A stretch of 63,147 bases of DNA from NCBI GenBank assembly GCA_018812625.1, contig JAHJDH010000012.1, forward strand, positions 1 to 63,147. The letters run 5' to 3'. Positions 5,874 to 32,260 of this stretch are shown here, one piece after another. Made by a program: the position numbers and the translations under genes. The notes beneath the pieces are model-generated. The model worked only from the letters and a program-made list of their open reading frames with translations. It did no database searches and was not told the DNA's origin. Position 1 is the first letter of the stretch; each line of letters begins with the position of its first letter. Source of the DNA: Candidatus Micrarchaeota archaeon. Lineage in GTDB: Archaea; Micrarchaeota; Micrarchaeia; Anstonellales; Bilamarchaeaceae.

Positions 5874-8800
5874 TCACCACATCACTCTAAAGTTACCCAT
5901 GATTCCCCATCCCATAGGAGCATTCATAATTCCAGTAACGCTTTCTTCTTGTCCTGCCCATGGACTGAGTTGTTCTGGGGATGTAACTGAACCTGGTGCT
6001 GTTGGCCAGCTTCCTGAGTATCCCATAATATGACCAGAGATTATCGTTCCTGGGTCACTGCTTCCTGGATCCTGCCTTTCATAGGTTACTCCAAGGCCTC
6101 CTCTTAGAACTGGATATGTTTCGTATTCTGCTGCTGGATGAAGGGACCCTTCAGGCTCTGGACTTGTGGATGCATCCTCAAGCATTCTCCTTCTCTCAGC
6201 TCCTCCTTCAAAGAAGAAATGGAGACTAAGAGATTCACCTGTAGTGATGTTTGTTCTTGCCCATGTGAGTCCAACTCCCGCAGTGGTTCTTTGAAGCTCA
6301 TTTAAGTCTGAACACTCCCCTCCGCTTAGCCTTGAACAAACCTGAGCCATTTCATCAGCATTTTCAAAGACATCATCACTTGCAAATACTACTTGTCTTG
6401 TTGTCTGGTTGAAGAACACGTATGAGTATAGCTGTTCGTTTACCCTTTCAGTATTAAGCAGTGTAAGGCGATGACTTAATCCAACCTGCCAATTGGTCCA
6501 TTGCTCGTTTCCATATGTTCTCTGACCATACAATACACCTGCAAGAAGATCCTGTCTGTGATCTTGCAATAACTGTGCAAGTGCACCTATTGTCCAATTG
6601 CCCCCTGGGCTATACTGCTCATGACCTGCTTCGGTAAGAGGTATTGTTAGTCCTCCCATGAGTCTAAATGCTGTCAGTGTTCGAAGTCTTCGATCTCCTG
6701 AGAATGTAAATTCGTAGTCTTCGCCTTCTGTTGAAATGTCCAGTCTGCTAACTCCATGTCCAATGTAGTTGCCAGATTCTTCCCATTCATCAAGGTCTTC
6801 CTGAGTTCCAATCATGATAGAACCTCTTGAATTTGGACCTGTTCCAATTCGGGTTACCATGATGAAATATCTATTTCTTCTCTCTGGACTGCCTCCTTCC
6901 ATTTCTGCATTGAGGTGGCTTCCATAGATAACATCATATCGCTCTGCCTGCTGTCTTCCATGCGAGTTCAATGCTGCTGCAAGGCAAGGTCTTATGTTCT
7001 GCTCAATTATTCTTCGAACTTCGTCTCCAGTTAATTCTGCTCTTGCTGGCGGCTGTCTAATATTGACTTCAGATAAACTTGCTTCAACGCTTCCGCTTGT
7101 TCCTGCTCTTCGTACAAATTCAGTTTCTACTTCTTCAGGAGTTCTCAATACCCATCCAAGAGAATGAACATTATTTTCAATGAGCTGTACCAGTTCTTCT
7201 CCATATGCAGTAGCAATGCGTTCTCTGTTTGGATTAACTCTTCTAAGTTCTCTATATATGTCTACAATTGCTTCTGCAGTTTCGCTGCTTCTTCTTGAAG
7301 AAATTAACATTGCAAGGGGATCTTCATCCTCTTCAATCATTCTTGCAAGTTCAGTTCTCACTTGTGCAACAGGGCGAATCATCCACTCAAGACCATTTCC
7401 TCTTTGTGCATGAACAATATCTGCAAATCCTTCGCCATAAATTCTTTCCATTCTATCATGGCTGTATGCAACACTTCCAAGCCTGATATATGCATCACGA
7501 GCAGCGGCTGGATGATCTGAAGTTCTATGAAGCGTAACATTGCGCTCATATCTTGACAGTTCAATTGAAGGCCAATCAAGAACTCCAAAACCCATATATG
7601 CATCAAGATATGGATTTGCCCTCTCACTTCTTTGTACCTGGAATCCTCCTGTTGAATCAGCATCTTCTACAATCATTATTGATGAATGGGTGTACCCATG
7701 ACCAAGAAGGTCGATGTATGCACGAGCCGGCCTTCCAAATATAAACATTCCATAAAGATTTGCATATGCTGTTTCATCATCGGTCCACTGTCCTGTTGCA
7801 ATTGTGTAAATCCTTAATCGCTCTCCATCATATCCATAACCAAGTGCAAATCTCCAAATATCACTTGTAAAGTCATTTTGAAGACTTGTTGATAATCCTT
7901 GTAGAATCTGTTCTTCGTTTGTTGGATTTTGCTGAATGTCTAACATTGCCTGGTCTATCCTGTCATACAGTCTACTAAATCCAGGAACTCTTTGCACTCC
8001 AGCAAGAATTCCATGTCTCCTTGCCCAGTATGCCATAAGTAAACTTGCATAATGTTCATTCGGTGTTTCTGGCTGATCTTCTGCTGTTCCTTGCCAGCCC
8101 TCCATTCTTCCATACATGTATGTTCCAGCTACTAACCATCCAGTATCACGAGCCTCGTCCTCTCCCCAACCATACATGCTGACAAGAACATTTCTCATTG
8201 TTGCAAAAACTTCCTCTGATTCCTGATCTACTGCTCTGAATTCTCGCAGCAGATCTACTTCAGTATATCCACCAGTAAGTCCATGCCCATATGATCTGTG
8301 CGCGCCTGTCTGCCTTTCATATCTCCATCTGGCACCAGCTGTTAGTGGATATCCACCAACTGCACGGAATTCCATTGATGCTTGTCTTGGAGCAATTGCC
8401 ATTCTTCTCCACATGAATTCTCCAGAGCCCTCTGCCCAATGCGATCCATCTATACTTGTAGAATCCTCAGGATTCATTTCAAGAATCTGTGCTCCCCTAT
8501 AGAATCCTGCATAAATATCTCGAGCTCGTCCATCACTGAGAATGTGGGTTATTGCTTGTCCCATGGCCTCTTCAGCATGTTGTGGAGTCATAGTTCCCAT
8601 ATCCCGAACAACCTGTCCAAGTGCGAGAGTAGTTGAAGTATCTCCCCTAGTAGTTGGAATAGTAAAACCTACTGCAGCGCCATCAAAACCAGCAAGAGCA
8701 GATTCTCCGTTAATCTCATTCCAAACTCCCTGCTCGCGCGCAAGTCTCTCAATTTCTGCTTCGCCGGTTTGAGCTTGCTGCTCTGCATTTAGCCCAAGAT

Positions 8801-11800
8801 GTCTTTCTATTAATCTAGTTCTCTCTGCACCTGAAAGTGCTGGTGCAACTGCACTATTTCTTCCTGCAAATCTAAGGCCTGCCAGAATATTTCTGGTATC
8901 TGTACTTCCATATAAGTAATTGAGTATCTGTGCGTGCGTATCAATTCCATATGCAAGATCATATGCATTTCCAGTTGATCCATCAATGTAGAACAGCCTT
9001 GTTCTAAGCTGGCTTCTCTCATCCTGCAATAACTCACCAACTGTGCCTGCAGGAGCACCTTCTGGAACTGGCGCGCGAAGCTCTGGCGCATGTTCTCCGC
9101 CGACTATAACAAGCATATCTCCTCCAGAGTCTCTTGCAATTCTGGAATATGTTTCAAGAAGTCCAGTGTATCTTTCTCTACTTTGTACCTCTCCAGTTTC
9201 TTCAGTTGTTTGGTTAGCTCCTTCATAGTTGAATCGTATATTTCCTCGCTGCAATCCAACTCCCTGTCCAAATGCAACTGGAATAACTCCAGCAACTCCA
9301 ACTGGAAGTCCTGCTGCCTGAGCTTCAATATCAACATCAGTTTCAGCTGTTTCACTATCTCCTGAATCCTCTGATTCTACTGCTGTTCTTCTATGAGTTA
9401 CAACCCCCCGGCCTCGAACTCCTCCGGTAATTGTTCTTCCCTGTCCAACTCCTCCAACTGCTACTGCGTCTGTTGAAGTTGTATCTGAGTCTGTTGCAGT
9501 TGGGATGGTTCCCTCATGACCGTAATAGCCACCAACTTCCCAATCATGACGAAGCCAATAGCTACTATAGTCTATTGGCATCTCACCAAATAATCTTGTT
9601 ATTTCTCTTATAATAGTTGACGCGCCAAGGGCTCCGATTCTATATCTTTGCGGAATTCCGTGTATCATATGTCTTCCAAGTGTTGGGTGCAGCATGTCAT
9701 ACCTTCTTGAGAAATATTCAGTTGCACCAGAATCAAGTCCAAATCTGCTTGGAGGCTCAATCAAACTTCTTGGCATTGTTGGAGATGGGATTAAATTCCA
9801 AGGTTGTGCTGCTTGTCCATAAAGTTGTGGAAGTGGTTCCATTCCTTCCATTTGCAGGAAGTGGGGCCTGTACCTATATCCTTGAGGATTCCATGGGCTT
9901 TCCATAAGTTGCCTTTCCGGAACTCTTCTAAGTTCATCCTCCATTCTATTGTGATCATATGTTGCAGTAACTCCTGGAAGTCTCTGTCCAATTCTGGCAA
10001 ACACTTCAAGGAAGTATTCTCTGTTTCTATGTGTGCTGTAAGAAAGAGTAGCTCCTGCTGTTGAGTACATCCTGCTGAATATTGTATTGAACGCTTCAAT
10101 TCCGGCAACAAGTGTTCTTTCATCCTGTGCAACGCTGATTATTGCTGGAAGAACCTGCAGAATGAATGGACCAACTAAGTATGGATCTCTTTGACTAATC
10201 AATAATAGAGAATTCATTGTTGCCCGCGCGGCACTTGTTCCAAATTCTGAGCCCAGGCTTCCAATTCTGCCAAGTCCAACTCCAAGATAAAGTGCATCAA
10301 TAATTGAGAGCTGGTTTCTAAGATTTGTTGCTTCTCCTTCAGTAAACCCTCGTGCATCTTCTGCATCAGCAGCTATTCCGCTCTCACGTCTTCCCTGGAG
10401 ATATGTGCTCTCAAGCTGCCCGTAGAATGTTCTTCCTGCAGTAATCAAATCTCTTCCTGATTCACTGCCAAGGAAACGTGCAAGGTCTTCTGGAGTTTGA
10501 AGTCCGCTTTCTGCAGTTCCTGGCGGAAGACTGATACTGTATCTTCTTGCAAGTGTTTGCAGTTGTGAATTTAGAAGGTCCAGATTAATGAAATTTCTAA
10601 ACAGATAATCGTTTGATCCAAACTGGTCTCTGTAATGGTTAATTGCAAGAGTTAAGTTCGCACCAAGATCATCACTGGTTGCAGTTGCAAAAACAAGAAC
10701 TCCTTTGAGTCTGGAATAAACTCCTGGAAGAACATCTGCAACGTGCCTGAAGTTTTGCATAAATTCTCCACGTGCAACTCCATCTCCTGCTTCAAAGCTT
10801 CTTTGTAGCTGCTCTAATGCAGCCGCATCAACTTGTCTTAGGTGCTCAAGATCACTAGTGCTCAGGTTTTCAAGGAACCTAAGTTGCGCTCTGTTTCTCT
10901 CAACCATTTGCACAAATGCTGCTCCATATATTTGTCTCAGTCCTGCAATTCTTGCAGTTCTTGCTTCTGATGCCGGAGTGTTCAAAGCTCCATAAACAGA
11001 ACCAAGTGCATAAAGCAGTTGTTCGTCTTGGTGTCTGTATGCTCTGTGAAGCGCAGTAACTACTCTGGTATATGCTTGTGGATATGCGCGGTATAATGAT
11101 TGTCTTACTGATTCTGGAAGTGCAGTTACTTCTTCAAGTCCTGCTCTTGCCTCTGCAAGCGGAGCTAAATGTTCTCTTTGTCTTTCCACTGCACTGACAA
11201 ATCTATCGCCATAAAGCTCTACCATTCTCTCTCTCGTCTCAGTTCCATCAGGACGAGCTATTGCACGATAAACTCTGATAGTTATATTTGCAAACAATAC
11301 GTTTTGGCCCATTCTCAAATTTTGTTCGCTGATGCCAGTTAAATTTTCAAGGAACCCAAGAACTGGTCTGTGATCATTTATCAATCTGACAAATTCAGTT
11401 CCATGTCTTCTTTGCACATCAGCTACATTCCCGCTTCCTCTTGAAATTGCATTGTATGCAGTTCCAAGGTCTCTGCTAAATCCACGGTCTCCCATGCTGG
11501 AAATAAATGCTCTAAGCTCTGGATCAGCTCTGCCAAGTACAGCAAAAATAATATCTCCGATTACTGCTTGTTTGTCTGGATTTGTAACTCCACTATACCA
11601 GGCCATTCCACTTCGAAGCGATCCAACATCGCTTGAGCTTGCAATTGTTTCTGAAAATCCATCAATACTGCCTGCAGTTCTTGAAAGGTCTCCTCCAGTT
11701 TCTGCAAGATGAATCATTGAAAATGCAAGTTCAACTGATCTTCTAAGTTCAGTTCCACTAATCATGCTTTCTTGCAGTGCTCGCTGTTCTTGAAGAAGAG

Positions 11801-14498
11801 TTTGTATTTCTGCTTGATCAGCACCACCTGCTGCAAGTCTTATTCTTCTACTTTCTTCTTCCCACCTATTGATTCTTTCTTCAAGCATTGGACGTGCAGG
11901 TGCAAGCATAGGATCTTCAAGCTGCCTTCTCATGCTCTCAAGATCACGTTCAATTGTACTGGAATTTGCTGTGATCTCGCCTCGGCTTCCTTCAAGAGCT
12001 TCTCCTGATATTCCCCTTGTTCTTGCTGCTTCTCTGCTTGCAACTGGAGTTAGGAAAAATCTTCCAAGCGAATCAATTCCATCCATTCTGGCAAGTCCGC
12101 CTCTAGTCAAAGCTTCTCTTCCACTGGCATATGACAGAATGAATTGTACTGGAGTAAATGGAAATAGTAATTCTTTTGCTGATCTTGTTATTTGGTCTTG
12201 TCCTCGCAAAAGTCGTTGTTCAATACTTGCAACATTTCCGCCTAGCCATTCTAATTGCGCTCTGTTTTGAGTAACAAAATCTACTGCGGCTTGCCCATAC
12301 TGAGTAACTAATTCTGCTGTAGTTGGACTTGCCTGTCCATGAGCTGCATAAATTGCATGAAGTGCTCTTGCAAGACCTCCAATTGAATATCCAATTGCAG
12401 GTGCTCCTCCTTGAGTAGTCAGTGTATCAGCGTCACGAACAAAAACATCAGATGTTCTTGTTGTCATCTCATGTTCTATTTGCCCTACTGGTCGAACTGC
12501 CCAGTGTAATGTATCAAGATTTTGTGAAACATAATTCACAAATTCACTACCATATCTTGTAGCAAGCAATTCTCTTGTTTGCCTGAATAATGTAATCTGT
12601 GCGTATGCTGCAGATAATGTAGTTCCGCCGTCTTGTGGGAAAAGCGCCTTTAGCTGAACTGCAACTTCATCTGATTCTGCTCCTCTTCCAGGTGCTGATC
12701 TTCGATCAAGTTCGGCCTGTACCTGTTCTGGAGTTCCTGCAAGCCAGGATAGTTCAGCATAATGTTCAGTGATAATTGAGCCTGCCGGAACAGCACCTAT
12801 TGCAAGTCGCTCTGTTGCAAGCTGTCCATAAACATCTGCAAGTGCAGCGCCTCTGTCAAGTCTTTCTCCGGCTTCCACTCTAATTGTCATTGAAGAAATA
12901 CGTCTTGCATGTATGTCTTCTTCGCGTGCTCTATCTGTTAATACTCTGTTTAGATCAGTGGCAGTTCTTATCATCCAGGTTGGTCTTCTTGCTGAAACAA
13001 GTGCTATCAATTCAGGACTGTATGCTCCTCTGAGTCTATCCATATTTGGAGGGCTTCTGAGAAGTTCTATGTAAATATCCCTGATTGCAATTGATCTCAC
13101 ATTTCTTCTGAAATTCATTTCAATACTTGAGACTGTGCTGTTGCCCTGGATTTGCGCTCTATATAATCTTACAAATTCATTGAAGAAAGTATCATTTCTC
13201 TCAAGCGGTACTCTAGTGTATGTTCGAGATCCGATTTCACCTGCACCAGCAACAAAATTCCCACTATAAATTCTGATAAATTCATCTCTTGCAGTTGTAC
13301 TTCCAGTTGCAAGCACCTGCTCCATTAAAGTTGCACATCTTCTGGCTAGTCCAAGCGAAATAATGTCAACAAATCTGTCAACTGTTTCATTTCCATGTGC
13401 CTGCCTAAGCTCTTGAAGCCTTGAGACATTGCCTGTACTTGCAGCTTCATACATTTGCGAAACTGCAGTTGCAAATGCTTCTGGATCTACCTGGTTATTG
13501 TGGTGAGTATAATATGATCTGTAAACAAGGGAAATTGGTGATGGCTGTCTATGGCCTTCCTCTCCAACCTGGTCTCTTGTTATGCGCTCCAGAAATAATC
13601 TTTGGAATCCGGTCCAGAATTCTCCTGATGTACTGTGCGCTCCAAATATTCTTCTAAATTCATCTCGCTGTGCAGTATCTCCAGTGAGCATAAAGTTTCG
13701 AAGAGAATCAACACATCTTGTTGCTTGCTGGTTTGGCAATTCTCCAGATAAAAGATTAGTTAAATTTTCTCCATGTCGCTCTCTTATTTCAGCAAGTCCT
13801 GTTCCTTCGAGTACATGTCTTGCAGCATCTTCTGCAGTAGCATCTGTATGAGCTCTTCTATATGCTCTGAATCTTCCAATTTCACTTTCTGCTGGAGCCT
13901 CTGTTTCTCCTGCTCTCTCTACTCGCTGAACCACTGCATCTATAAGTGCCCATGTAGTTGCATTGGCAGCAAGCCGTGTTCTAATCTCACGAACTTTGGT
14001 AATAAAATCTTCCATAATAGAAGGTTCCATTCGAATTCCAATAACATGATCAAGATCAGCTTCATATGCTTCAAGAATTGGACGAACTTGAGCATCACTT
14101 CTCATTGTTGTCATTCTGCTATGAAGCTCATCCATAAATTCTCTGTTTTCAGTTACCGGCTGCTCCTGAAATTGACTTGTGATAAGAGCCCTGTATCTTG
14201 TATAATCAGCTTCATTTCCTGTTAAAATATAACTTTGATATGCGGTTGCAGCATCCCTAGCTCTTTGCTGAAGGCCTGCTACTTCTTCCTGTTCCGCGTG
14301 GGTAGCTCCCCTACGTCGAGTTGCCGGTTGTGCCATAACAGAATTTACCCCGAGATAATTTATATTATTACCGCCTAAGAAAACTGAGACTGCAACTACA
14401 GGTGCAAGCAAATATTTTCCAAAAATAGAAATTTTTCTGCGGCGCGGTAGCTCCCCATGATCCCCCTTTTGATCATGTTTTATTTTGGATCCAACCAT
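5874..14498 (-). CDS. Giant exported protein (2874 aa): signal peptide, alpha-helical repeats, Gly/aromatic beta-rich C-terminus ending in Trp
   Basis: Uninterrupted 8.6-kb ORF with AGGAGA SD. Basic n-region + LLAPVVAVSVFLGG h-region + VMA/Q cleavage-like site. Codon usage resembles the host's. Confidence 0.9.
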   Translation of the reverse strand: MVGSKIKHDQKGDHGELPRRRKISIFGKYLLAPVVAVSVFLGGNNINYLGVNSVMAQPATRRRGATHAEQEEVAGLQQRARDAATAYQSYILTGNEADYTRYRALITSQFQEQPVTENREFMDELHSRMTTMRSDAQVRPILEAYEADLDHVIGIRMEPSIMEDFITKVREIRTRLAANATTWALIDAVVQRVERAGETEAPAESEIGRFRAYRRAHTDATAEDAARHVLEGTGLAEIRERHGENLTNLLSGELPNQQATRCVDSLRNFMLTGDTAQRDEFRRIFGAHSTSGEFWTGFQRLFLERITRDQVGEEGHRQPSPISLVYRSYYTHHNNQVDPEAFATAVSQMYEAASTGNVSRLQELRQAHGNETVDRFVDIISLGLARRCATLMEQVLATGSTTARDEFIRIYSGNFVAGAGEIGSRTYTRVPLERNDTFFNEFVRLYRAQIQGNSTVSSIEMNFRRNVRSIAIRDIYIELLRSPPNMDRLRGAYSPELIALVSARRPTWMIRTATDLNRVLTDRAREEDIHARRISSMTIRVEAGERLDRGAALADVYGQLATERLAIGAVPAGSIITEHYAELSWLAGTPEQVQAELDRRSAPGRGAESDEVAVQLKALFPQDGGTTLSAAYAQITLFRQTRELLATRYGSEFVNYVSQNLDTLHWAVRPVGQIEHEMTTRTSDVFVRDADTLTTQGGAPAIGYSIGGLARALHAIYAAHGQASPTTAELVTQYGQAAVDFVTQNRAQLEWLGGNVASIEQRLLRGQDQITRSAKELLFPFTPVQFILSYASGREALTRGGLARMDGIDSLGRFFLTPVASREAARTRGISGEALEGSRGEITANSSTIERDLESMRRQLEDPMLAPARPMLEERINRWEEESRRIRLAAGGADQAEIQTLLQEQRALQESMISGTELRRSVELAFSMIHLAETGGDLSRTAGSIDGFSETIASSSDVGSLRSGMAWYSGVTNPDKQAVIGDIIFAVLGRADPELRAFISSMGDRGFSRDLGTAYNAISRGSGNVADVQRRHGTEFVRLINDHRPVLGFLENLTGISEQNLRMGQNVLFANITIRVYRAIARPDGTETRERMVELYGDRFVSAVERQREHLAPLAEARAGLEEVTALPESVRQSLYRAYPQAYTRVVTALHRAYRHQDEQLLYALGSVYGALNTPASEARTARIAGLRQIYGAAFVQMVERNRAQLRFLENLSTSDLEHLRQVDAAALEQLQRSFEAGDGVARGEFMQNFRHVADVLPGVYSRLKGVLVFATATSDDLGANLTLAINHYRDQFGSNDYLFRNFINLDLLNSQLQTLARRYSISLPPGTAESGLQTPEDLARFLGSESGRDLITAGRTFYGQLESTYLQGRRESGIAADAEDARGFTEGEATNLRNQLSIIDALYLGVGLGRIGSLGSEFGTSAARATMNSLLLISQRDPYLVGPFILQVLPAIISVAQDERTLVAGIEAFNTIFSRMYSTAGATLSYSTHRNREYFLEVFARIGQRLPGVTATYDHNRMEDELRRVPERQLMESPWNPQGYRYRPHFLQMEGMEPLPQLYGQAAQPWNLIPSPTMPRSLIEPPSRFGLDSGATEYFSRRYDMLHPTLGRHMIHGIPQRYRIGALGASTIIREITRLFGEMPIDYSSYWLRHDWEVGGYYGHEGTIPTATDSDTTSTDAVAVGGVGQGRTITGGVRGRGVVTHRRTAVESEDSGDSETAETDVDIEAQAAGLPVGVAGVIPVAFGQGVGLQRGNIRFNYEGANQTTEETGEVQSRERYTGLLETYSRIARDSGGDMLVIVGGEHAPELRAPVPEGAPAGTVGELLQDERSQLRTRLFYIDGSTGNAYDLAYGIDTHAQILNYLYGSTDTRNILAGLRFAGRNSAVAPALSGAERTRLIERHLGLNAEQQAQTGEAEIERLAREQGVWNEINGESALAGFDGAAVGFTIPTTRGDTSTTLALGQVVRDMGTMTPQHAEEAMGQAITHILSDGRARDIYAGFYRGAQILEMNPEDSTSIDGSHWAEGSGEFMWRRMAIAPRQASMEFRAVGGYPLTAGARWRYERQTGAHRSYGHGLTGGYTEVDLLREFRAVDQESEEVFATMRNVLVSMYGWGEDEARDTGWLVAGTYMYGRMEGWQGTAEDQPETPNEHYASLLMAYWARRHGILAGVQRVPGFSRLYDRIDQAMLDIQQNPTNEEQILQGLSTSLQNDFTSDIWRFALGYGYDGERLRIYTIATGQWTDDETAYANLYGMFIFGRPARAYIDLLGHGYTHSSIMIVEDADSTGGFQVQRSERANPYLDAYMGFGVLDWPSIELSRYERNVTLHRTSDHPAAARDAYIRLGSVAYSHDRMERIYGEGFADIVHAQRGNGLEWMIRPVAQVRTELARMIEEDEDPLAMLISSRRSSETAEAIVDIYRELRRVNPNRERIATAYGEELVQLIENNVHSLGWVLRTPEEVETEFVRRAGTSGSVEASLSEVNIRQPPARAELTGDEVRRIIEQNIRPCLAAALNSHGRQQAERYDVIYGSHLNAEMEGGSPERRNRYFIMVTRIGTGPNSRGSIMIGTQEDLDEWEESGNYIGHGVSRLDISTEGEDYEFTFSGDRRLRTLTAFRLMGGLTIPLTEAGHEQYSPGGNWTIGALAQLLQDHRQDLLAGVLYGQRTYGNEQWTNWQVGLSHRLTLLNTERVNEQLYSYVFFNQTTRQVVFASDDVFENADEMAQVCSRLSGGECSDLNELQRTTAGVGLTWARTNITTGESLSLHFFFEGGAERRRMLEDASTSPEPEGSLHPAAEYETYPVLRGGLGVTYERQDPGSSDPGTIISGHIMGYSGSWPTAPGSVTSPEQLSPWAGQEESVTGIMNAPMGWGIMGNFRVMW

Positions 14499-15539: not shown

Positions 15540-15544
15540 GAATC

Positions 15545-16597: not shown

Positions 16598-16606
16598 GGG
16601 GATAGC

Positions 16607-25300: not shown

Positions 25301-28049
25301 CAAGTTCTCTTGCAGATGGTGCTGAAACTCCTTCTGGTAAATTATCATAAAGTCCAGTAATTTCTACGAGCATCCTATTTACTTCAAGAAGTCTTTCTCT
25401 TGCACTTTGAAGGTTTTCCTGCCTTACTGTTCCTGCTTTAACATGCCCAAGTCTGATATTGAATCTGTCAATTGCCCTGTTGAATTCTGTCATATTTCCT
25501 GTTGTAGCAGCACGTCTAACATCACCCATCAATTGCCTTAATGTTCTTTGTCCACGCAGTCTTGGATCAGTTCCAGCAAAGTCTCTTTCATATCTTCTCA
25601 CATCTGCAAGATCAACATATCCAGGATATCTTCCGCCAGCTCTTGTTCCAAGAGGCAATTGCCCTCTGGTATCTGTTTGTCCATCGACCCAATCCCGTCT
25701 TCCCATGATTCTGTCTTCAAGCTGCTGCGCTCTGGTTAGAAGAAGTTCTGTGTTTGCAATTCTTGCTGAACCTGAATCAAATCTTTCAGCTGCAGCAGTA
25801 TGCTGTTCTATTGTCTGTGCATTTATTTCCATTTCAATTGCTTCTAGCATCTCTTGTCTTCCTTCAACATAGCCAGGGGTTCTTTGTCCAAAGCTGGTTG
25901 AAAAAAGTCCGTATCTCCATCCTTCTCTTTGTCTGCTCTCTGCAGTTCCATAATAATCTCTGGCATATTGAAGAAGTATGTGCGCTCCATTAAAGTCTCC
26001 ATGACTAGCCCGTTCTCTTGCAGTTGCAAGTGCATCTCGTATTCCTTCTTGTCCAAGTTCTCTTCCTGCAATCGCTGTTTCAAGTCTTCCTGTCTCGCGC
26101 CTTATATATGCATTTTGTGCAGCTGCATAACTCTCTACGAATCTCTGTTCAATAGGCTCTCCTGCAAGAGTGAATCTTCCTCCTCTTGCATATTCCATTA
26201 TTCGTTCCATTCCTTGAAGGAAGGCTGCATCAGATTCTGCTACTGATGTTATTCTTCCGCTTCTTCGAACTCCAAGTCTTTCAACTGCTTCGCTATACAT
26301 TACAATGAATGTCAAAACTCTTCTTGCTCTTGTGAGGTTACCTTGTGCAATAAGCTCATCAACATGATTTAGTGTTTCAGTTGCAACTGTTTTTTGTGAA
26401 AACCTTCCCCAGGTTCCTATTCTTGTTCTAAGTTCGCTTGCTGTTGAAGCATATTCATGACGAAGTATTCCATCATGGAACATTTCACTGCCATCTGCTC
26501 CAGTAAGCTCTGCATCCATGGCAGCTTCCATCTGTTCTGAACCTGCAAATGTTCCCCATCTTCTCTGCTCACCAATTGCTGTATATGCGCTTACTATATC
26601 AAATAATCTTTCTGCTCCAGCAACATCTCCACTTTGGAGTCTAATTCGTGCAGCCTGAATTGCTGCTCGGATTCTTTCTCTTTTTGCTGCTGGGCCTCTG
26701 GTTCTATATCCTGCTTCAAGAGAATCCATGTCTGCTCTTAGTGTTGCAATATTGAGAGTATCTTGGAACCTATGGGCCATTGCTGGCGTGAATGGAATCC
26801 TTCCATCAATGATCCTGTTCATCTCTTCATAATTATCCAGGTATCTTCTTCCCTGTCCATTTGCAATCTGCTCAAGAAGACCCATCATCATTGAAAGTCT
26901 TGCAATTTGAACCTCACTCGAATCAAGTGCATCAAGCGCTCTTTGAGCATACCAAGCAGCACTATGTTCTGCTGGAGCTCTTCTCGAAGTTCCTCTAAGT
27001 TCAACTGCCCTTTGCCTCAACTGTTCAACTTGTTCAGTTTCAGTTCTTGGCTGCTCTGTTCCAGTTAATATGTGGTATCTTTGAATCAGTCCGCGAGCTT
27101 GCTCAAGATCAACTGTTCTTTGTCTTCTAAGTCTTGCGAGTAAGCTGTCCATATCCTGCTGAAGGCTTTGAATGGATGCTGCACGGATTCTATCTTGTGC
27201 AACATCTGCCGAAATCAGTTCCAATTGCTGCCTGTAATGTGTGATTGTTGCTATTGTTTCAGTTCTAATTGTTGTTTGTGCGCTTTGCAGATCCTCAGTA
27301 AATTGTTCAATGAACTGCTGGTCTGCTGTTGCATCGTCCTGTGAATATATTGCCCCTTCTCTGGCTTCTCGTCCTCTCTCAATAATAAATCTATATCCTC
27401 GATCTCGAATAACTGATGCCTCGGAACCTTCAATTCTGCTAAGCTGAGGACGGGCTGCAAGCAATCTTCCAACTGCTAAAATATTCATTCCTCTTTGATT
27501 GTTGCGTGTTCCAATATCGATAAGCGCTGATTCCAGTCCGTTTAATACCTCAGCTGGAATGTCTTCAATCTCAATTCCTGGAATCTGGACACTTGTTGGA
27601 GAGCCTGCAAGAAGCAGTCTCATTCCAATATCATAAACTTCTCCGATTCTTACAATCTTATCTCTTGCTTCTGCAAGGGATCTCACTGCATTTCCAAGTC
27701 TTCCTTCATTTGCTTCGGTTACTGATCTCGCAATCACTGTTTCTATCATTTCAAGCTCGTTTGTATATCTATCACCAAGGATAGGAACAGATGTAAGATT
27801 CATTCTTCTAACTGTTCTTCGAAGCATATCTGCATCTCTTTGAACTCCTTCTGATGTTCTTGCTCCAGGGCTTACTCTCATTTCTCCTGCGTATTCAAGC
27901 AGTTCACTGATCTGTGACTGAACTCGTGCAAGTCCTGCTCTAAGTTCCTGCTCTTGTCCTGGACTTACTACTGTTCGAATTGGTACAATAGAAATTGGAA
28001 GGTGACTTTCTTCTCTTGTTTCCGGTCTTCTTCTTTGACGTTCTGCCAT
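19392..28049 (-). CDS. Giant Arg/Ala/Glu-rich alpha-helical membrane protein (~2885 aa) of unknown family
   Basis: 8.66-kb ORF; GGTGA SD before MAERQ (28049). Four adjacent hydrophobic helices at 24000-24431, a further TM at ~21361-21428, TPR-like helical pairs. Confidence 0.9.
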   Translation of the reverse strand: MAERQRRRPETREESHLPISIVPIRTVVSPGQEQELRAGLARVQSQISELLEYAGEMRVSPGARTSEGVQRDADMLRRTVRRMNLTSVPILGDRYTNELEMIETVIARSVTEANEGRLGNAVRSLAEARDKIVRIGEVYDIGMRLLLAGSPTSVQIPGIEIEDIPAEVLNGLESALIDIGTRNNQRGMNILAVGRLLAARPQLSRIEGSEASVIRDRGYRFIIERGREAREGAIYSQDDATADQQFIEQFTEDLQSAQTTIRTETIATITHYRQQLELISADVAQDRIRAASIQSLQQDMDSLLARLRRQRTVDLEQARGLIQRYHILTGTEQPRTETEQVEQLRQRAVELRGTSRRAPAEHSAAWYAQRALDALDSSEVQIARLSMMMGLLEQIANGQGRRYLDNYEEMNRIIDGRIPFTPAMAHRFQDTLNIATLRADMDSLEAGYRTRGPAAKRERIRAAIQAARIRLQSGDVAGAERLFDIVSAYTAIGEQRRWGTFAGSEQMEAAMDAELTGADGSEMFHDGILRHEYASTASELRTRIGTWGRFSQKTVATETLNHVDELIAQGNLTRARRVLTFIVMYSEAVERLGVRRSGRITSVAESDAAFLQGMERIMEYARGGRFTLAGEPIEQRFVESYAAAQNAYIRRETGRLETAIAGRELGQEGIRDALATARERASHGDFNGAHILLQYARDYYGTAESRQREGWRYGLFSTSFGQRTPGYVEGRQEMLEAIEMEINAQTIEQHTAAAERFDSGSARIANTELLLTRAQQLEDRIMGRRDWVDGQTDTRGQLPLGTRAGGRYPGYVDLADVRRYERDFAGTDPRLRGQRTLRQLMGDVRRAATTGNMTEFNRAIDRFNIRLGHVKAGTVRQENLQSARERLLEVNRMLVEITGLYDNLPEGVSAPSARELAPRRTALVTLEARRTALIHYISSLQATSTYVMPHLTGEALAFFEQLQGLNGAFPEEQLGEFLGEVGREARIARAFSVLNGQLALNEQYRQVVLTTSGEVAARTGALIVQCTGQLETTRRQILAGNFEAAEQSYMQAVSSREEALMGYLAENSPMATQIIHAHAPGLAQALGGRQAVRTAYDEQRRMQGFEFYRSAHLSTFHNILFGNVSDDELNRRGQIATLLETSIFAIPQSGAAQITTDYARAQSEVMSQLRYAYEHQGEVATASLERAQSILRVMQETVVTNQQALQWALIGAGLVSVFIPVVGPYVSGAIFLGMAAEQIVTEYRVHGHASAESWAMAGLVVVSLGMMGAAARVGRAALAARAAGATTHAIRLSRIATGLNIANLGIATFFSGYAGYHGYQAFQRGDSTTGTLMFALAVFPWAVMGGSALGRAAIAGSGRAQARIYAREFALEFGEAPPEILGARELGNPSTMFRFMRLLRAQNPIALEIFGGFSSRLRTQISHLMRQSAIRTALRGGELNQIAEAALVRGIRGLEFPPPRGPGGGARVAISDLASFISNPERFRSFLGELARFEATPAEARTSSMIAARARLEAIRAENPQAGARIDALLQHRAVRHALDTGIDTPFSTRAIQQEFGTPQRPGPLRRLVPDEVITEANAAEATMEFEVVRTGTGTEYVIEVPGQPQVTAGTTMPPIRASATPPSGPPIGTGAPAGGASRQVSEGGRRRGGTPREPTGVREPAPVEEPPAPVPEVQRIARVGVIERAYGRTRDAVRGWRQRRAAARRSAEPPNADAILEDAQARMGDILSDITMSPEETALVIRRASAEAARAEANVQTLRQGGAPSAEIQAAERAAVQARAEATEIGNVARNSVQRSVELFSRIDRMATSAGRGTRDGYLGVLRKMYSSPNLRPHLEAAARTDPALARALARTQGSIRSAAGSRGTAEAYMELTDARPFSREEMTLILEATERTAAARLAELESGVASSEAVVERTGQALETARINLEAGRTRGLTGRRLARLERAHDQANTSHETAFEQNQQLIHQTREQRAALRPLAQTERLLGTEFGAGDRTALLLQLESRGAISGDTIIAEGLTLRNATRDMIRRIPAEGDPVAQAVRRGLSEQMLQGGNLDEAITTVLRSDRVARAVRENYGPQQRRIFEHAIAEGGNMEVVLDMGTPVSRVLRSFRTPEMRGNFHAIEISNPRIEQLIPGISEQAGILARDASLTVRGTVRESVSGAGRWFLAHEPGVHWGGLQYYRAVRASRGAGGSTPYAALRPSNSLRMVPQIAAWAGLGYIGWNFVYQPLHDMLSDEDEIRQGIAAAQRDFGISISEENALWIINDDGGRQFYYHLPNTLPQSTDRRPGNQQQLQSLLEGSGHYLNPRMMNEFITDGREMAGQLEEINELLTTRRTAAEGSADRTEAERQLLAIIQPWGMSLEAVDVILLNEHKQQLDITDLADLRMPNWRSRGIVMSFAQGVATQMLVDAGVISTSELRSGQISEEHANMVSFLSDNPNIFAFIWMQVQQGHIPVVYIDNAISQFSSQRYGRETSDEVLQQRLTEQHLYLATAIAQNSFLGNLDRRACTDPEIRSTLESLIRTYGSNTAALRAFNRFNLTEGEFGEEIYGDLNALATLIAENPGTALATARESGQVAPRIFAQMDGALRGSEYAEAIAFAITHTEMRGGRATNGVMKWMADNSHQIENLHEILRHIQANAQTQDMAPQAIYEYLDRQSGYYRSRGWWSGSTPVEIREQAGGAERRGRGDARSATPPRTGAGRTRAEVLEHEETPVYPRRPGFETRQPAEVQDEAPDEPAEVERTPTVGLSAEAQSFYQSEERGGVQIAEFVDARVDALFNDIEGEGTRRTGDGVVMRAAFGEDQEGIEARQQPNRQRARTEIKADLYRIITGTSERSARLRRSLGITVEGEGANMTVSFSARGARTAYRNHIHGYARAHRTRRQ

Positions 28050-28058
28050 AATCTTCAC

Positions 28059-28495: not shown

Positions 28496-31400
28496 TTATT
28501 CTGCATCTCTATTTGCACGAGCAAAAGTCATGATGTGTGATGAGAGTCCTTTTCGAGCGCGCCTTGCATCAAATGTAACTTCAGTTATCTCTTCATGCGC
28601 TTCTTCGCCCTCACCTGTACTTGCTTTTACTACTTCTACTCCCCAGCCTTTTCTTAACTGTGCGCTTCTTTTGCTGGTTCCCTCAAGCACTCTTAGAACT
28701 TCTCCTTTAACTGCAGTTTCAGCTCTAGCTCGGTCTCCGCCATATAGCTTTTGCAGGGACTCTTGGTCTTCATACAGTCTTTCAAATGTTATATCCACGA
28801 ATTCTGTCCATTCTGTGAATCTCTCATCAGCATAGAACTGGCTTGCTACCTTGGTTTGCTCTGCTTTTGTTGGGCCTGCTCTTGTCTCAGTAGATCTCAT
28901 ATCCTCTGCACTGAATATGTAACCGGCATTAATTGCACCCTGAGCGCTTTTTCCTCTTGGCTCTGTAAACGGATCATAATCACTTACTGATCCTCCAGAT
29001 TCCTTATGCCTTACAAGAAGCTGTACAAACTGATCTGATCTTCCAGTGTTTATCTTGTACAGTGCACCATTTTTGACGAACTTTTCAAGAAGTTCTCGAA
29101 CATCTGGCTGGGCAACAAACGCATCTTTTGAAGGTTGCAGTTGTAAGTTGAGCTGGGATATTGCTTTTTCTGCTTGATTCAGTCTATACTCGGTTGTACA
29201 GTCTTCGTCCCATCCGCTCTCTCCTGCCTTTGTCATAACCTTGGCAAATGTGCTTCTCATGGTTTCTTCTGGAACTTCATCTGAAAGTGGATTTGGAGTG
29301 CCTTCTCCTGTTGATATTTCGCTTCTCCAAGCTGCCAGGAATTCTTCTCTGTGTTCAGTCTTTACAAATCTCTCTGCTTCACCGCGATTTACAAGTGGAA
29401 GCATAAGTGTTGTTACCATTGTTTTCTGTGCAACTGCAAAGTCAACATTTTCATCTCCACTGATTCCGAATCTTTCCATAGCCTCATCCTGTTGTTCAGT
29501 GATAAGGAATCTTCGCTCGTTCCAGGTAATCATGTTCTTGGTATCTCGAAGGAATGCACCATCTATTTTTGCGCCTCCTTCTTCACCTTCCTCTCCCTGC
29601 TGAGTTCTAAGATAATTGACAAATTCATCTGCTTTTTGTCTGTTGAGCTTTAGTTTATCTGTAATTTGTTCAGTATCCATTTCAAGCAAACAACATACTG
29701 GCATTGCTTTGTTTGGTACCCATCCCTCATCAGTAACAAGGTCGGGTGCGCTAAATGCTGCAACATCATCATCATTTTCAAAACTGAATGGAGCAGCTTT
29801 GCAGCTTTCTGGAATATGTACCTTTTTCGTGCTGCATGTTTCAGGGGTATCAACTGGAAGTTCTCTTGGCTCACTCTTTACTCTGATAAGTGATCTTCTC
29901 TCCTGGAAGAATCTCAGAACTTCTGGATTCTCAGCAACCCACTCAAGATTTTCTTCACCTCGAACTCCATAATTGTCCCTGTAAAATTGTTCTCCTCTAC
30001 CAGCTAGTTTGGTGTAATCATCCTTACTGTCATTGATGAGTCTTCTATGAGTTTGTGGTGTGTCAACTGAAGTTATCCATGTCCATGGCTGATATAATCT
30101 GCTGTGTCCATCCAATGCAAACCTAGTATTTTGGGGAACAGTTGCAGTGTAATGCTGCCATACACTTGGAGATGCATAATTTCCATAAATTCCAGTTCCA
30201 ACTACATACCCCAATGTGATTGCATGTATAATTCCAACGTGCCATCTTTTGAGGTTGAACCATCCAAACATTTTGTATGTTTTTTTATTGTCATTTCCAA
30301 TTCTTGGAATAACCTGTCTTCTTTCTTTAATTAAATTCTTTACGAGTGTTCTGAGTGTTGTGATAGTGTATACTTTACCTGCTATCCATCCAATTACATC
30401 AAGGGTGAAGAATGTTCTATAGAAGCCATGTGCAATTCTGTCAAATAACCCCTCCACATTCATATGCAATGCTTCAACTTTTTCTCCAGTCTTTTCCCAA
30501 ATAGTTTTTGCAATAACCCACTGCGTTTCACTGATCTCTCCGATCTCCATGATAGAACCATCTTCAAGTTTCTTAATTGCAAGTTTAGCTGCTTCCCGAG
30601 CCGGGTATGCATACTTGTTCTTGAATTTTGTGCATTTTCCTTCAACATATCCTTTTGGAAGATTCATGTTTCTTGTTGCTTCAACTATTTTTTGAAGTTC
30701 TTTCTTTACTTCTTCAGGTAATTCTGAGGTTTCAACATCTTCTGCAAGCTTGTTGATTTTTGCATTAAATTCTTCCCATTCCTTTTCAAAAGATTCTTTT
30801 GCAACCTGCTCAATTGTTTTTGCAAATCCTCCAGTTTCTTTGATTTGTGGTCCTCTTTCATTTGCAAGTGCTTGCATCAATGACTCTTTTTCTGAAAGAG
30901 CTTCTTCAACATCATCTAATATCAATGTGATTTTTGGATATTCTGCCCATTTCATTGTTTCAGGCATTTCTTTCAAAAGTCCAGCATCATTTGCCTCAAG
31001 GAGTTTTCTTCTGAATGCTGTTTCAAATTCTGTAAGTTTTTTTACAAAGAATTTTCTTTTGCCAGAAGCTTCCTGATATGCTGCGCTTACTCCTTTTAAC
31101 AGACTGGTAAGGCGTGTAACATTTTGTTCTGCAATTTCAACTTCCTGATTAAGGTTCTCTTCAATTTGCCTTACCTGCTCTACCTTATCTCCAACAATCT
31201 CTCCTTTATCTCTTGCCTGCTTGATTTTTTCAGCTGCTTCTGATCTTTTTTGTTTTGCATCTTGCAATATTGCCTGAGCTTCTTTTACTTTAGGAATTAG
31301 AGTATTCATCGGCTCTGCTGCCTGTTCAACTGCTTCTTTGCTGACCTGCTCAAGTCCAAGACCTGGAACTCCTGTTTCGGCATGGATTTCATTTGAAGGA

Positions 31401-32260
31401 GTTTGCATAATCTCCCGAACCACTTTTCTAAACTCATCAACTGTTCTCTCTATTGGTTCATTTGATTTTTGCTCTAGATAAGTATCTACGTAATTAGGAT
31501 CAACAAGTCCTCTTTGAACTCTTAATTTTGCATCTGTAGTAAGGGACTTTCTCTCAGATAGCTGTTTAAGGACACTACCAATGTATTCACCCTCTGTACC
31601 CTGGCTCTCTGTTTTGGCAACATTTTCCAAAAATGCGAAAAATGCTTCTGGCGGTGATGGGCATTCTGCATTCCATCCTCCCCAAAATTCTGCGGCTCCT
31701 CCTCTTACCATTACTGATTTCAATCCTATTAATGTAACATATAATATATCAAGGTCATCTGCTGATAACTCCTCGACGGTACGTTTCTTAAGCATTCCAG
31801 CAAGTCTTTCTCTTACCTTAACCATCTGTTCTTTGTATTTTGGACTTGCTTCCTCTAGCGGAGTTGGAAGCTGGTCCTGATTTCTTACGATTGCAATGAA
31901 CTGATCCTGGCACATTACTGTTCGCATCAAATCGTCTGAAGTTTCATATCCTTCTGCTCTGACGTTTCCTCTTCGAAGTGCATTAATGAGTATCTTGTTA
32001 AAGCCATGAAGCCCTGCATTTGCAACGTCTGAGCTGTCTGCTCCTTTTGTTGCCTTTCCTTTTGCTTCTTCATGTTCATCTCGAGCAGCAAGCCTTGCCC
32101 GCTCTTCATCTGCGGCAATTAGGGTTTTTCTAGACCTTGAAAATGGTCTGGCTGCCCAACCTTTTTTTGCTGCTCCCCCTACTGCTCCAGCTGCTCTTCT
32201 AGCTACTCCAACTGCTGGATCTCTCGTCTGTGCTTGTTTCATACCTGTACTATCCGCCAT
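28496..32260 (-). CDS. 1254-aa coiled-coil membrane protein, paralogous at the C-terminus to the 2885-aa protein
   Basis: Long heptad region (~30700-31330), hydrophobic segments at ~30170-30415, shared C-terminal GTSxRSAxLR domain. Confidence 0.88.
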   Translation of the reverse strand: MADSTGMKQAQTRDPAVGVARRAAGAVGGAAKKGWAARPFSRSRKTLIAADEERARLAARDEHEEAKGKATKGADSSDVANAGLHGFNKILINALRRGNVRAEGYETSDDLMRTVMCQDQFIAIVRNQDQLPTPLEEASPKYKEQMVKVRERLAGMLKKRTVEELSADDLDILYVTLIGLKSVMVRGGAAEFWGGWNAECPSPPEAFFAFLENVAKTESQGTEGEYIGSVLKQLSERKSLTTDAKLRVQRGLVDPNYVDTYLEQKSNEPIERTVDEFRKVVREIMQTPSNEIHAETGVPGLGLEQVSKEAVEQAAEPMNTLIPKVKEAQAILQDAKQKRSEAAEKIKQARDKGEIVGDKVEQVRQIEENLNQEVEIAEQNVTRLTSLLKGVSAAYQEASGKRKFFVKKLTEFETAFRRKLLEANDAGLLKEMPETMKWAEYPKITLILDDVEEALSEKESLMQALANERGPQIKETGGFAKTIEQVAKESFEKEWEEFNAKINKLAEDVETSELPEEVKKELQKIVEATRNMNLPKGYVEGKCTKFKNKYAYPAREAAKLAIKKLEDGSIMEIGEISETQWVIAKTIWEKTGEKVEALHMNVEGLFDRIAHGFYRTFFTLDVIGWIAGKVYTITTLRTLVKNLIKERRQVIPRIGNDNKKTYKMFGWFNLKRWHVGIIHAITLGYVVGTGIYGNYASPSVWQHYTATVPQNTRFALDGHSRLYQPWTWITSVDTPQTHRRLINDSKDDYTKLAGRGEQFYRDNYGVRGEENLEWVAENPEVLRFFQERRSLIRVKSEPRELPVDTPETCSTKKVHIPESCKAAPFSFENDDDVAAFSAPDLVTDEGWVPNKAMPVCCLLEMDTEQITDKLKLNRQKADEFVNYLRTQQGEEGEEGGAKIDGAFLRDTKNMITWNERRFLITEQQDEAMERFGISGDENVDFAVAQKTMVTTLMLPLVNRGEAERFVKTEHREEFLAAWRSEISTGEGTPNPLSDEVPEETMRSTFAKVMTKAGESGWDEDCTTEYRLNQAEKAISQLNLQLQPSKDAFVAQPDVRELLEKFVKNGALYKINTGRSDQFVQLLVRHKESGGSVSDYDPFTEPRGKSAQGAINAGYIFSAEDMRSTETRAGPTKAEQTKVASQFYADERFTEWTEFVDITFERLYEDQESLQKLYGGDRARAETAVKGEVLRVLEGTSKRSAQLRKGWGVEVVKASTGEGEEAHEEITEVTFDARRARKGLSSHIMTFARANRDAE

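Follow-up and report, generated by a model that had tools for sequence, protein, structure and literature searches.

What is built by five adjacent archaeal genes that encode two proteins of about 2,900 amino acids (aa) and belong to almost no recognised family? The question is raised by the minus strand of a 63,147-nucleotide (nt) stretch of DNA, referred to here as the window (contig JAHJDH010000012.1 of assembly GCA_018812625.1), from a Candidatus Micrarchaeota archaeon of the genus Candidatus Bilamarchaeum (Anstonellales). The genes encode, in order, P0003, P0005, P0002, P0004, and P0001. The molecular basis of envelope building and cell contact in DPANN archaea is largely unknown, and the cluster supplies concrete, conserved candidate parts for both, namely a putative anchor, small partners, a helical giant, and a barrel-like giant. 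We report that the cluster keeps its order and chromosomal slot among the genomes compared, that three of its proteins are nearly devoid of lysine in most of them, and that it may build an assembly outside the cytoplasmic membrane. As far as sequence comparison can tell, such an assembly would most likely be a previously undescribed machine.

Organization of the five-gene cluster

The initial annotation, made from the DNA letters and their translations, had described five co-oriented minus-strand genes including two giants of about 2,900 aa. The six-frame list of open reading frames (ORFs) agrees with this layout:

28496-32260, minus strand: P0003, 1254 aa
28059-28379, minus strand: P0005, 106 aa from a GTG, or 104 aa from the ATG at 28373
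19392-28058, minus strand: ORF of P0002, 2888 aa from a GTG, or 2885 aa from the ATG at 28049
19392-28049, minus strand: coding sequence of P0002, predicted as leaderless, all-alpha, and lysine-free, with the N-terminus MAERQRRR
16993-19392, minus strand: P0004, 799 aa
14886-16957, plus strand: three-gene cassette between P0004 and P0001
5874-14498, minus strand: P0001, 2874 aa

Since the orthologs begin with MAERQRRR, the ATG at 28049 was taken as the start of P0002. The translational coupling that had been claimed for the 104-, 2885-, and 799-aa genes is visible at both junctions: the TAG stop of P0005 lies inside tcataGGTGAagattATG and overlaps a Shine-Dalgarno-like GGTGA, 6 nt before the P0002 ATG, and the P0002 stop and the P0004 start have TAATG in common. 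The P0003 stop is followed by an oligo-T tract, and P0005 is preceded by a TATA-like TTTATAAA box, so that P0005, P0002, and P0004 may be transcribed as a separate unit. As had been read from the translations, SGNH was the sole family recognised: Pfam found only GDSL/SGNH, in P0004, and the five proteins and their family profiles, when searched against Pfam, PHROGs, and PDB sequences, yielded no further family.

Conservation and residence of the cluster

The whole region was fetched from 10 other Bilamarchaeum genomes, with a crude ORF calling in these relatives. The order P0003-P0005-P0002-P0004-P0001 was kept in 10/10, and in each case the cluster occupied the same slot, between a block of FtsY, prefoldin, eIF6, and L31e and a block of a 143-aa ORF (orf143), aTrm56, and PGM. 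As variants, G033 has two copies of P0002, and in G035 the P0001 gene is inverted and accompanied by a few inserted genes. Stop codons (three TGA and one TAA) split the P0001 ortholog of G031 (contig C4) into four ORFs, and the P0002 ortholog of G002 (contig C2) is split into three; either lineage decay or assembly errors in long repetitive genes would account for the splits. Across the 10 genomes, the cluster proteins were 25-45% identical, compared to 60-80% for the flanking housekeeping proteins. Such a rapid divergence fits an arms race or surface exposure.

Orthologs of P0004 were present in all 10 other genomes. P0001 was detected in 30/61 related genomes and in 29/37 genomes of the genus (the window genome included), with 28-97% identity, and P0002 and P0003 were detected in 35/40 and 30/40 genomes of the genus, respectively. 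A profile of the C-terminal 946 aa of P0001 matched 22 of the 301 genomes of the phylum, which belong to the genus, to three other genera of the same family (proteins of 1.4-2.1 kaa), to one other family, and to one other order; this C-terminal module was not detected in 8/37 genomes of the genus. Only 65 related clusters were found for it among 1.84 billion representative proteins, and all the named ones are Micrarchaeota. One distant unnamed member lies among genes including RtcB and a DUF7343 domain protein, judged by its neighbours a likely archaeal context, and no Pfam domain was found in eight distant relatives of the module. In general, the homologs carry the labels Candidatus Bilamarchaeum or Micrarchaeota. 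Neither independent occurrence of the genes across Micrarchaeota nor a match to S-layer or phage families, the two outcomes that the initial annotation had regarded as fatal to a joint machine, was observed; the genes occur together and in the same order throughout the genus.

The codon usage had been described as similar to that of housekeeping genes and the locus as resident, and both statements hold. The synonymous codon fractions of the giants versus the housekeeping genes were 0.68 and 0.60 for AGA, 0.71 and 0.65 for GCA, 0.72 and 0.62 for GGA, 0.53 and 0.47 for CTT, and 0.75 and 0.74 for GAA. The GC content of the cluster (0.42-0.46) exceeds that of the flanks (0.36-0.41); however, the GC content at third codon positions (GC3) is native, 0.22-0.25, and so are the codons, so that the surplus is attributed to amino-acid composition, namely Arg, Ala, and Gly. 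On both sides lie archaeal housekeeping genes (FtsY, prefoldin, eIF6, L31e, aTrm56, PGM, PRPP synthase, and Cdc48), and the Pfam and PHROGs scans found no integrase, capsid, or terminase domain in the window or the locus proteins. Since the slot and the order are fixed in 10/10 genomes, the locus is not a mobile element. Judged by gene order and codons, it is a single-copy, vertically inherited, fast-evolving, lineage-specific chromosomal cluster of Candidatus Bilamarchaeum.

The inverted cassette at 14886-16957, which had been listed within the locus, does not belong to the system. It encodes a 217-aa protein of no family, a 353-aa HEAT-repeat Cys-rich protein, and a 116-aa membrane protein. 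Its codons are foreign (CGG 0.26, GGC 0.33, CTG 0.31, and also GAG), with a GC3 of 0.39-0.46. The cassette was absent from all 10 other genomes, including the sister genome G002, whose P0001 ortholog is 97% identical. By these codons and this distribution, it is therefore a recent strain-specific foreign insertion between P0004 and P0001.

Three cluster proteins are nearly free of lysine

P0001 contains 10 lysines in 2874 aa, P0002 8 in 2885, and P0004 1 in 799, while the genome median is 8.3% Lys. Arg makes up 10-12% of the purged proteins (331 Arg in P0002 and 96 in P0004). At the genome rate, such Lys counts have a binomial probability of 1e-29 to 1e-94; a background of 2% Lys, as is typical of high-GC proteomes, still leaves 1e-6 to 1e-16. 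For at most 10 Lys in 2874 aa, the two values are 3e-91 and 1e-14. P0001, P0002, and P0004 are purged together, to 0.1-0.4% Lys, in seven of the 11 genomes (the window genome G000, G002, G031, G033, G021, G034, and G024). The small P0005 is Lys-rich in every species compared. A P0001 ortholog with 55% identity has 65 Lys, whereas more distant orthologs have 2-11; the lysine state therefore flips repeatedly.

The distribution of the residual lysines follows the predicted topology. In P0003 of G033, G021, and G024, the purge is found only downstream of the single hydrophobic segment, and the coiled coil upstream retains 24-37 Lys. In G033, for example, the Lys/Arg counts were 24/23 in the coiled coil and then 1/23, 1/31, and 2/15 past the hydrophobic segment. 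Five of the 10 lysines of P0001 precede the hydrophobic core of its signal peptide. Six further Lys-free, Arg-rich ORFs with signal peptides have few Lys, concentrated in the n-region. We infer that the purge marks extracytoplasmic parts, a reading that is not watertight, and that Lys may have been replaced by Arg where a lysine-directed activity outside the cytoplasm would be harmful. Lysine-poor toxin chains and organisms with a Pup-proteasome provide a precedent for selective Lys avoidance (PMC13696103).

The purge extends beyond the cluster. In the window genome, 21-23 ORFs are Lys-free (<2%) and Arg-rich (>7%), and they account for about 5.9% of all encoded residues. This class differs from the ordinary N/S/T-rich surface giants with signal peptides, which are low in both Lys and Arg. 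Members located outside the cluster are as follows:

C32:26504-52303, minus strand: the largest, on another contig, 8,599 aa with 15 Lys and 929 Arg
C8:4446-9529: Lys-free/Arg-rich ORF
C28:213-8711: Lys-free/Arg-rich ORF
C34:2778-3671: Lys-free/Arg-rich ORF
C4:211-1020: Lys-free/Arg-rich ORF
C14:17474-18247: Lys-free/Arg-rich ORF
window 49931-51193, minus strand: Lys-free/Arg-rich ORF
window 41182-42231, minus strand: Lys-free/Arg-rich ORF

Several simpler causes of the purge were considered. A high-GC origin is ruled out by the GC3 of 0.22-0.25 and the native codons. Protein length or poly-A slippage was rejected, as some Lys-free proteins measure only 149-330 aa and Lys makes up 6.3% of a giant of 6,342 aa. 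The order can synthesize lysine (PMC8561730, PMC12892359), which makes starvation for it unlikely, and the groundwater source lends no support to alkaline adaptation. The species tree was too poorly resolved to be used for mapping the purge.

P0003 and P0002 have a C-terminal domain in common

A coiled coil and a transmembrane segment had been claimed for P0003, and multiple transmembrane segments for P0002. The relevant features are as follows:

30182-30238, minus strand: hydrophobic segment of P0003, residues 675-693, Kyte-Doolittle 1.42
28499-28894, minus strand: C-terminal domain (CTD) of P0003, about 120 aa, shared with P0002
24000-24440, minus strand: Gly/Ala-rich hydrophobic helices of P0002, residues 1207-1353, hydropathy peaks 1.6-2.0, conserved in the family
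19395-19790, minus strand: CTD of P0002, modelled as two helices, a beta hairpin, and a long terminal helix

In P0003, one hydrophobic segment is indeed present, but it is weak, with the value of 1.42 given above; its orthologs reach 1.29-1.75 at the aligned place, and G024 only 0.96. Cys 809, 820, 856, and 857 are invariant. Because the lysine boundary falls at the hydrophobic segment in three species, we propose that P0003 is a bitopic anchor with a cytoplasmic coiled coil of about 670 aa, one membrane segment, an ectodomain with the four conserved Cys, and the CTD. A match of P0003 to PHROG 21416 (E 4e-4) was dismissed as chance, as only 1/10 orthologs matches.

In P0002, hydrophobic helices exist as claimed, but they form a single cluster at residues 1207-1353. 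No Pfam family was found in P0002 or in any of nine relatives. The AlphaFold2 model of residues 1689-2888 (mean predicted local distance difference test score, pLDDT, 71.5) was all-helical and consisted of long helical bundles, a low-confidence segment in which another hydrophobic helix lies, a globular domain made of helices, and the CTD. Foldseek retrieved nothing significant for this model, the best match being SmhB with an E of 0.38 and a TM-score of 0.08-0.23.

The CTD is the sole homology between the 2885-aa and the 1254-aa proteins. The two copies were matched by BLASTP with an E of 2e-12 and by hhalign with a probability of 99.9% and an E of 2e-32 over 120 columns. Only these two ORFs of the genome carry the CTD, and it is restricted to the genus. 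A motif following the hydrophobic segments of both P0002 and P0003 was also considered and rejected; once the CTD was removed, hhalign found nothing (best E 0.17).

P0005-family genes precede leaderless giants

P0005 is small, basic, Lys-rich, and helical, and it is the best conserved member of the cluster, with 46-63% identity. Its profile matched 33 of the phylum's 301 genomes, spread over 9 genera; most of these genomes have more than one copy, and G022 has nine. Two paralogs of the window genome lie directly upstream of giants:

C32:52290-52625, minus strand: P0005 paralog before the 8,599-aa Lys-free giant
C6:14386-14745, plus strand: P0005 paralog before the 6,342-aa giant

A further 16 copies of the family were sampled (loci L052-L067) from seven genomes, five of which belong to other genera or another family. 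In 16/16 loci, a leaderless ORF on the same strand followed the P0005-family gene, and in 15/16 it started within 70 nt. This ORF reaches 2,699 aa or more in 13 loci, runs past the 12 kb fetched in ten, and has at most 0.8% Lys in eight. Since a P0005-family gene precedes a large leaderless ORF in 16/16 loci, P0005 appears to be a dedicated partner of giants, and we propose that it acts as a giant-specific chaperone or export adaptor.

An N-terminal MA(Q/E)..RR..acidic motif occurs in P0002, two other giants, the mature P0001 past its cleavage site, and two smaller Lys-free proteins. It was counted in 5/23 Lys-free ORFs versus 1/1,130 others, with a Fisher p of 1e-8 that is indicative only, as the motif was defined post hoc.

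The SGNH domain of P0004 is accessory

The only domain of the cluster with a recognised family lies in P0004:

17725-18270, minus strand: SGNH/GDSL domain of P0004, residues about 375-556, PF13472 E 1.6e-10

The PF13472 match covers residues 384-544 with 42.2 bits against a cutoff of 32.9. The catalytic motifs GASL, GVSGE, VND, and DHLHP are intact in the window protein, which places it in the SGNH family, and the nearest solved structures are TesA-like SGNH esterases (7c2d, E 1.4e-4). The whole domain is missing from two of the 11 orthologs, those of G024 (521 aa) and G027 (655 aa), and block V varies in G035 and G023. The conserved parts of P0004 are an N-terminal beta-hairpin-like segment and helical regions. 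The hydrolase had been cast as the effector of the system; its loss from 2/11 orthologs shows that it is accessory, and neither core nor an essential effector. P0004 is thus, by its sequence, a leaderless lysine-free accessory protein to which the predicted esterase is an optional add-on.

P0001 has a signal peptide and a predicted helical stalk and barrel-like end

P0001 and P0002 had no similarity in BLASTP and are not paralogs. P0001 is divided into three parts:

14331-14498, minus strand: signal peptide, residues 1-56, ending NxNNLG...AMA/QP (cleavage at the slash), conserved in the family
9477-14330, minus strand: helical repeat region, the putative stalk, with a recurring YG..FV..V..N...L.W module in the translation
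5877-9476, minus strand: beta-hairpin-rich, barrel-like region, residues 1675-2874, ending in ...GWGIMGNFRVMW

The signal peptide that had been noticed on the 2874-aa protein is well founded, as the family has a basic n-region, a hydrophobic core (hydropathy 1.98, residues 23-41), and a conserved AxA signal-peptidase site (VMA/QP in the window protein). A profile of the C-terminal copy of the YG..FV..V..N...L.W module also matched residues about 457-720, both in the window protein and in its orthologs. The C-terminal third is the best conserved, with about 50% identity versus about 43%.

The AlphaFold2 model of residues 1675-2874, built from a 27-sequence alignment, had a mean pLDDT of 62, with 75-90 over the last ~580 residues. 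It predicts about 40 strands of 10-27 residues, arranged as hairpins and broken by helical inserts. Against the PDB, Foldseek listed only giant outer-membrane barrels (SlpA/SDBC, LptD, MtrB, TonB-dependent transporters, BamA, and SprA), together with ApoB100 and MTP; the S-layer-anchoring barrel SlpA/SDBC of Deinococcus was the top match, and ApoB100 and MTP stood at ranks 4 and 48. The matches in the BFVD viral fold library were equally weak (best E 2e-4, TM-score at most 0.14), and the best two were unnamed. No Pfam outer-membrane-protein family was found in P0001 or eight distant relatives. The terminal strand (...GNFRVMW in the window protein) has alternating hydrophobic residues, and W, F, or Y is the last residue in nearly all family members, the most distant included; it resembles the bacterial beta-signal, though in likeness only. 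The barrel is thus predicted from a model whose fold matches are consistent but weak. Bridge-like lipid transfer proteins (VPS13, TamB/AsmA) were also considered: the Pfam families Chorein_N, AsmA, and DUF490 had no match in the cluster proteins, ApoB100 and MTP are among the weak Foldseek matches, and the first 1,600 aa of P0001 are predicted as helical, unlike the beta-groove of such proteins.

Two observations concern the neighbourhood of the P0001 gene. A short GC palindrome of the TCCCCTTGGGGGGA type, followed 6-13 nt on by ATTAAATA, precedes P0001 and two exported genes that are paralogs of each other (48956-49792 and 49931-51193, the second of which is Lys-poor), and may be the site of a shared regulator. 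A 143-aa Lys-rich ORF of no Pfam family adjoins the 3' end of P0001; it was found next to P0001 in most related genomes examined (21-98% identity), was absent from the fetched G033 region, and may be a mere neighbour or a sixth component.

14574-14630, 49814-49871, and 51210-51264, minus-strand promoters: palindrome and ATTAAATA, window
C31:~19750, plus strand: fourth palindrome site, in the window genome
5402-5833, plus strand: 143-aa ORF

A proposed assembly outside the cytoplasmic membrane

Building on the conservation of the cluster, its translational coupling, the joint lysine state of three of its proteins, the CTD common to P0002 and P0003, and the regular position of P0005-family genes ahead of giants, we tentatively favour the reading that the cluster builds an assembly outside the cytoplasmic membrane, made of an anchor, a giant-specific partner, a helical giant, and a stalk-and-barrel giant, and we hold it with somewhat less than even confidence. 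To these observations, the reading adds a topology, the export of leaderless proteins, CTD docking, barrel formation, and a role in host contact. P0003 would anchor the assembly, with its ~670-aa coiled coil in the cytoplasm, one membrane segment, a Cys-containing ectodomain of about 560 aa, and the 120-aa CTD. P0005 would stay in the cytoplasm, where it would bind the giant during its synthesis, most probably through the MA(E/Q)..RR..acidic motif at the N-terminus of the giant, and keep it competent for a non-Sec export. P0002, an all-alpha rod of 2,885 aa with four central hydrophobic helices, would leave the cytoplasm, and its CTD may dock to P0003 or to a partner common to both. P0004 is made together with P0002 through translational coupling, its SGNH esterase being optional. 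P0001 would be Sec-exported, with its helical modules as a stalk and its beta-hairpin region of about 1,100 aa as a very large distal barrel-like pore or platform. Such an assembly would probably serve to touch another cell or surface, or to move material to or from it.

A bolder version is conceivable, in which the giants of Bilamarchaeaceae use a dedicated non-Sec export pathway with the MA(Q/E)..RR..acidic signal and P0005-type chaperones, the lysine-free giants and a true membrane beta-barrel bridge to another cell, and the purge protects against a lysine-directed defence or protease met there. To our knowledge, membrane beta-barrels have so far been found only in bacterial and organellar outer membranes, and we regard this version as speculative and distinctly unlikely.

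A number of findings weigh against the assembly. We know of no outer membrane in Micrarchaeota, and Omp85 (PF01103) was not found in the window genome (85% complete), whereas it was found in seven control bacteria. The confidence of both models was only moderate (mean pLDDT 62 for P0001 and 71.5 for P0002), the Foldseek matches of P0001 were not significant (best E 1.4e-3, TM-score at most 0.15), and only about half of the predicted strands have a clear hydrophobic/polar alternation, many of the strands carrying Arg or Glu. P0002 and P0004 are leaderless and have no known export route. With regard to the purge, P0001, P0002, and P0004 are unpurged together (3.4-10.7% Lys) in four of the 11 genomes (G027, G035, G023, and G025); about 14 of 21 Lys-free/Arg-rich ORFs are leaderless and about 6 have an N-terminal signal; the P0003 ectodomain in the window itself is not purged; and in G023 and G025 the Lys-poor part of P0003 is the cytoplasmic coil. 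Finally, Anstonellales have wide biosynthetic abilities and may be less reliant on hosts (PMC12892359), so that host-directed delivery stays a conjecture and an envelope or surface assembly is ranked above delivery. The contact-dependent delivery apparatus pictured in the initial annotation finds indirect support for its parts, in the barrel-like distal region, the anchor, and the chaperone-like small protein, and delivery itself goes beyond them.

Other explanations of the cluster have to be weighed with these points in mind. The proteins may form a scaffold of the cell's own envelope (for instance, a sheath, a pseudo-periplasmic skeleton, or an anchor for an S-layer), with no role in contacting other cells. 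The top Foldseek match of P0001 is an S-layer-anchoring barrel, the locus is a single-copy core locus amid housekeeping genes, and a reduced host dependence of Anstonellales (PMC12892359) would suit such a scaffold. However, for a structural core, a divergence down to 25-45% identity inside a single genus is very rapid, there are few N-glycosylation sequons (0.1-0.6 per 100 aa), the N/S/T-rich signal-peptide giants of the genome suit a surface-layer role better, and the P0001 C-terminal module goes undetected in the eight genomes of the genus mentioned above; we consider the scaffold unlikely, if the strongest of the alternatives. An integrated virus, a mobile-element remnant, or a chance juxtaposition of unrelated genes might be suspected from the raised GC content and the one PHROG match, but the former comes from Arg, Ala, and Gly with a native GC3, and the latter is confined to 1/10 orthologs. 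Moreover, the BFVD matches of P0001 are as weak as the PDB ones, integrase, capsid, and terminase domains were not found, and the same slot and order recur in 10/10 other genomes, by which synteny this explanation is effectively refuted.

The delivery model takes its strongest form if P0002, a helical bundle whose hydrophobic head resembles that of alpha-pore-forming toxins, and the P0001 barrel are secreted and insert into a target membrane (prey, host, or competitor), with the SGNH domain helping to breach the target's surface and Lys being avoided against lysine-directed tagging or proteolysis there. P0002 is Lys-free both before and after its hydrophobic helices, as expected if it left the producer entirely, lysine-poor catalytic chains of AB toxins evade lysine-directed degradation (PMC13696103), and the cluster evolves fast. 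The best Foldseek matches of P0002, none significant, are the tripartite alpha-pore-forming toxins SmhB and AhlB, but an E of 0.38 is at chance level; no immunity gene is conserved, and conservation is highest, not lowest, in the C-terminal parts. The SGNH domain can be lost, and archaeal ether lipids are not known to be substrates of esterases. In addition, we know of no host, and the lineage may be able to do without one (PMC12892359); an attack or defence system of this kind seems rather unlikely to us. It is also conceivable that P0002, P0004, and perhaps other leaderless Lys-free proteins stay in the cytoplasm and escape the cell's own lysine-directed modification, for instance ubiquitin-like SAMP tagging or acetylation, their link to P0001 being only genomic. 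The lack of signal peptides on P0002 and P0004, the leaderless majority of the Lys-free/Arg-rich ORFs, and the Lys-poor cytoplasmic coil of P0003 in G023 and G025 agree with this. Nevertheless, the lysine state of P0002 and P0004 always matches that of the Sec-exported P0001, the purge boundary of P0003 falls at the membrane segment in three species, and the four hydrophobic helices of P0002 argue for membrane contact, which makes a cytoplasmic location improbable.

Comparison with known systems

The extracytoplasmic assembly that we favour has partial likenesses among known systems. Type 9 secretion of Bacteroidota also has a giant of more than 2,000 aa, SprA (8gl6, 8gl8), whose barrel was found at ranks 10 and 15 of the P0001 Foldseek matches, and a C-terminal domain of about 100 aa common to other locus proteins. 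However, there is no sequence homology, no Por_Secre_tail-type CTD or Por/Spr Pfam match was found (E at most 0.1-1), the CTD described here is helical with a hairpin and occurs on two proteins only, one of which is the putative membrane anchor, and the organism is an archaeon with no outer membrane that we know of and no Omp85 found. Bacterial outer-membrane barrels (SlpA/SDBC, LptD, MtrB, and TonB-dependent transporters) have similar long antiparallel hairpins and an aromatic-ended amphipathic C-terminal strand. P0001 differs from them in the weakness of its matches (E 1e-3 to 0.1, TM-score at most 0.15), in strands rich in Arg and Glu, in large helical inserts and a preceding 1,600-aa helical stalk, and in sequence relatives limited to Micrarchaeota.

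Type 3 secretion translocators have small dedicated chaperones (IpaB/IpgC type). Here too, a small helical protein is coupled just upstream of a leaderless protein with central hydrophobic helices, but there is no homology, the client exceeds theirs 5-20 times in size, injectisome genes are absent, and the P0005 family serves many different giants. In contrast to polymorphic toxin and contact-dependent inhibition loci, the cluster has no conserved small downstream gene and the P0001 C-terminus is not variable. ClyA-type and tripartite alpha-pore-forming toxins are not matched by the predicted fold of P0002 (SmhB, E 0.38). Unlike archaeal S-layer glycoproteins, the cluster proteins have a signal peptide in P0001 only, no S-layer Pfam domains, and 0.1-0.6 sequons per 100 aa.

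Among other symbionts with small genomes, giant surface proteins are reportedly found in Nanohaloarchaeota, as the SPEARE proteins. Apilactobacillus kunkeei has Giant1-5 (PMC12863079). Both resemble the present cluster in prominent or consecutive giant extracellular genes that take up several percent of a genome of about 1.3 Mb and in a suspected role in cell interaction, but their protease, adhesin, and nuclease domains were not found here, nor were Ig-like repeats, and the composition and predicted folds differ. Lysine deserts in AB-toxin chains and in Pup-proteasome organisms (PMC13696103, PMC10665810) likewise have Arg for Lys in selected proteins only, in a pattern that GC content does not explain. 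In the present case, however, archaeal proteins of up to 8,599 aa are purged, and the purge follows the predicted membrane topology and switches between congeneric species. In another DPANN lineage, cryo-tomography has revealed proteinaceous tubes and a large barrel-shaped platform under the S-layer, to which no genes are assigned (PMC11329633).

If the topology-linked and species-switchable lysine loss is read correctly, it would serve as a natural marker for listing the proteins of that compartment, and could be used in a comparative search for the selective agent. If the barrel is real, membrane beta-barrels would be extended to Archaea.

Other features of the window

Two further features of the window were recorded. 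A Fic/DOC-domain protein (PF02661, E 3e-21) adjoins a tRNA-Glu gene, and the signal recognition particle (SRP) RNA scored best, within its Rfam clan, against Bacteria_large_SRP (66.7 bits, threshold 60).

40098-41003, minus strand: Fic/DOC-domain protein
43897-44153, minus strand: SRP RNA

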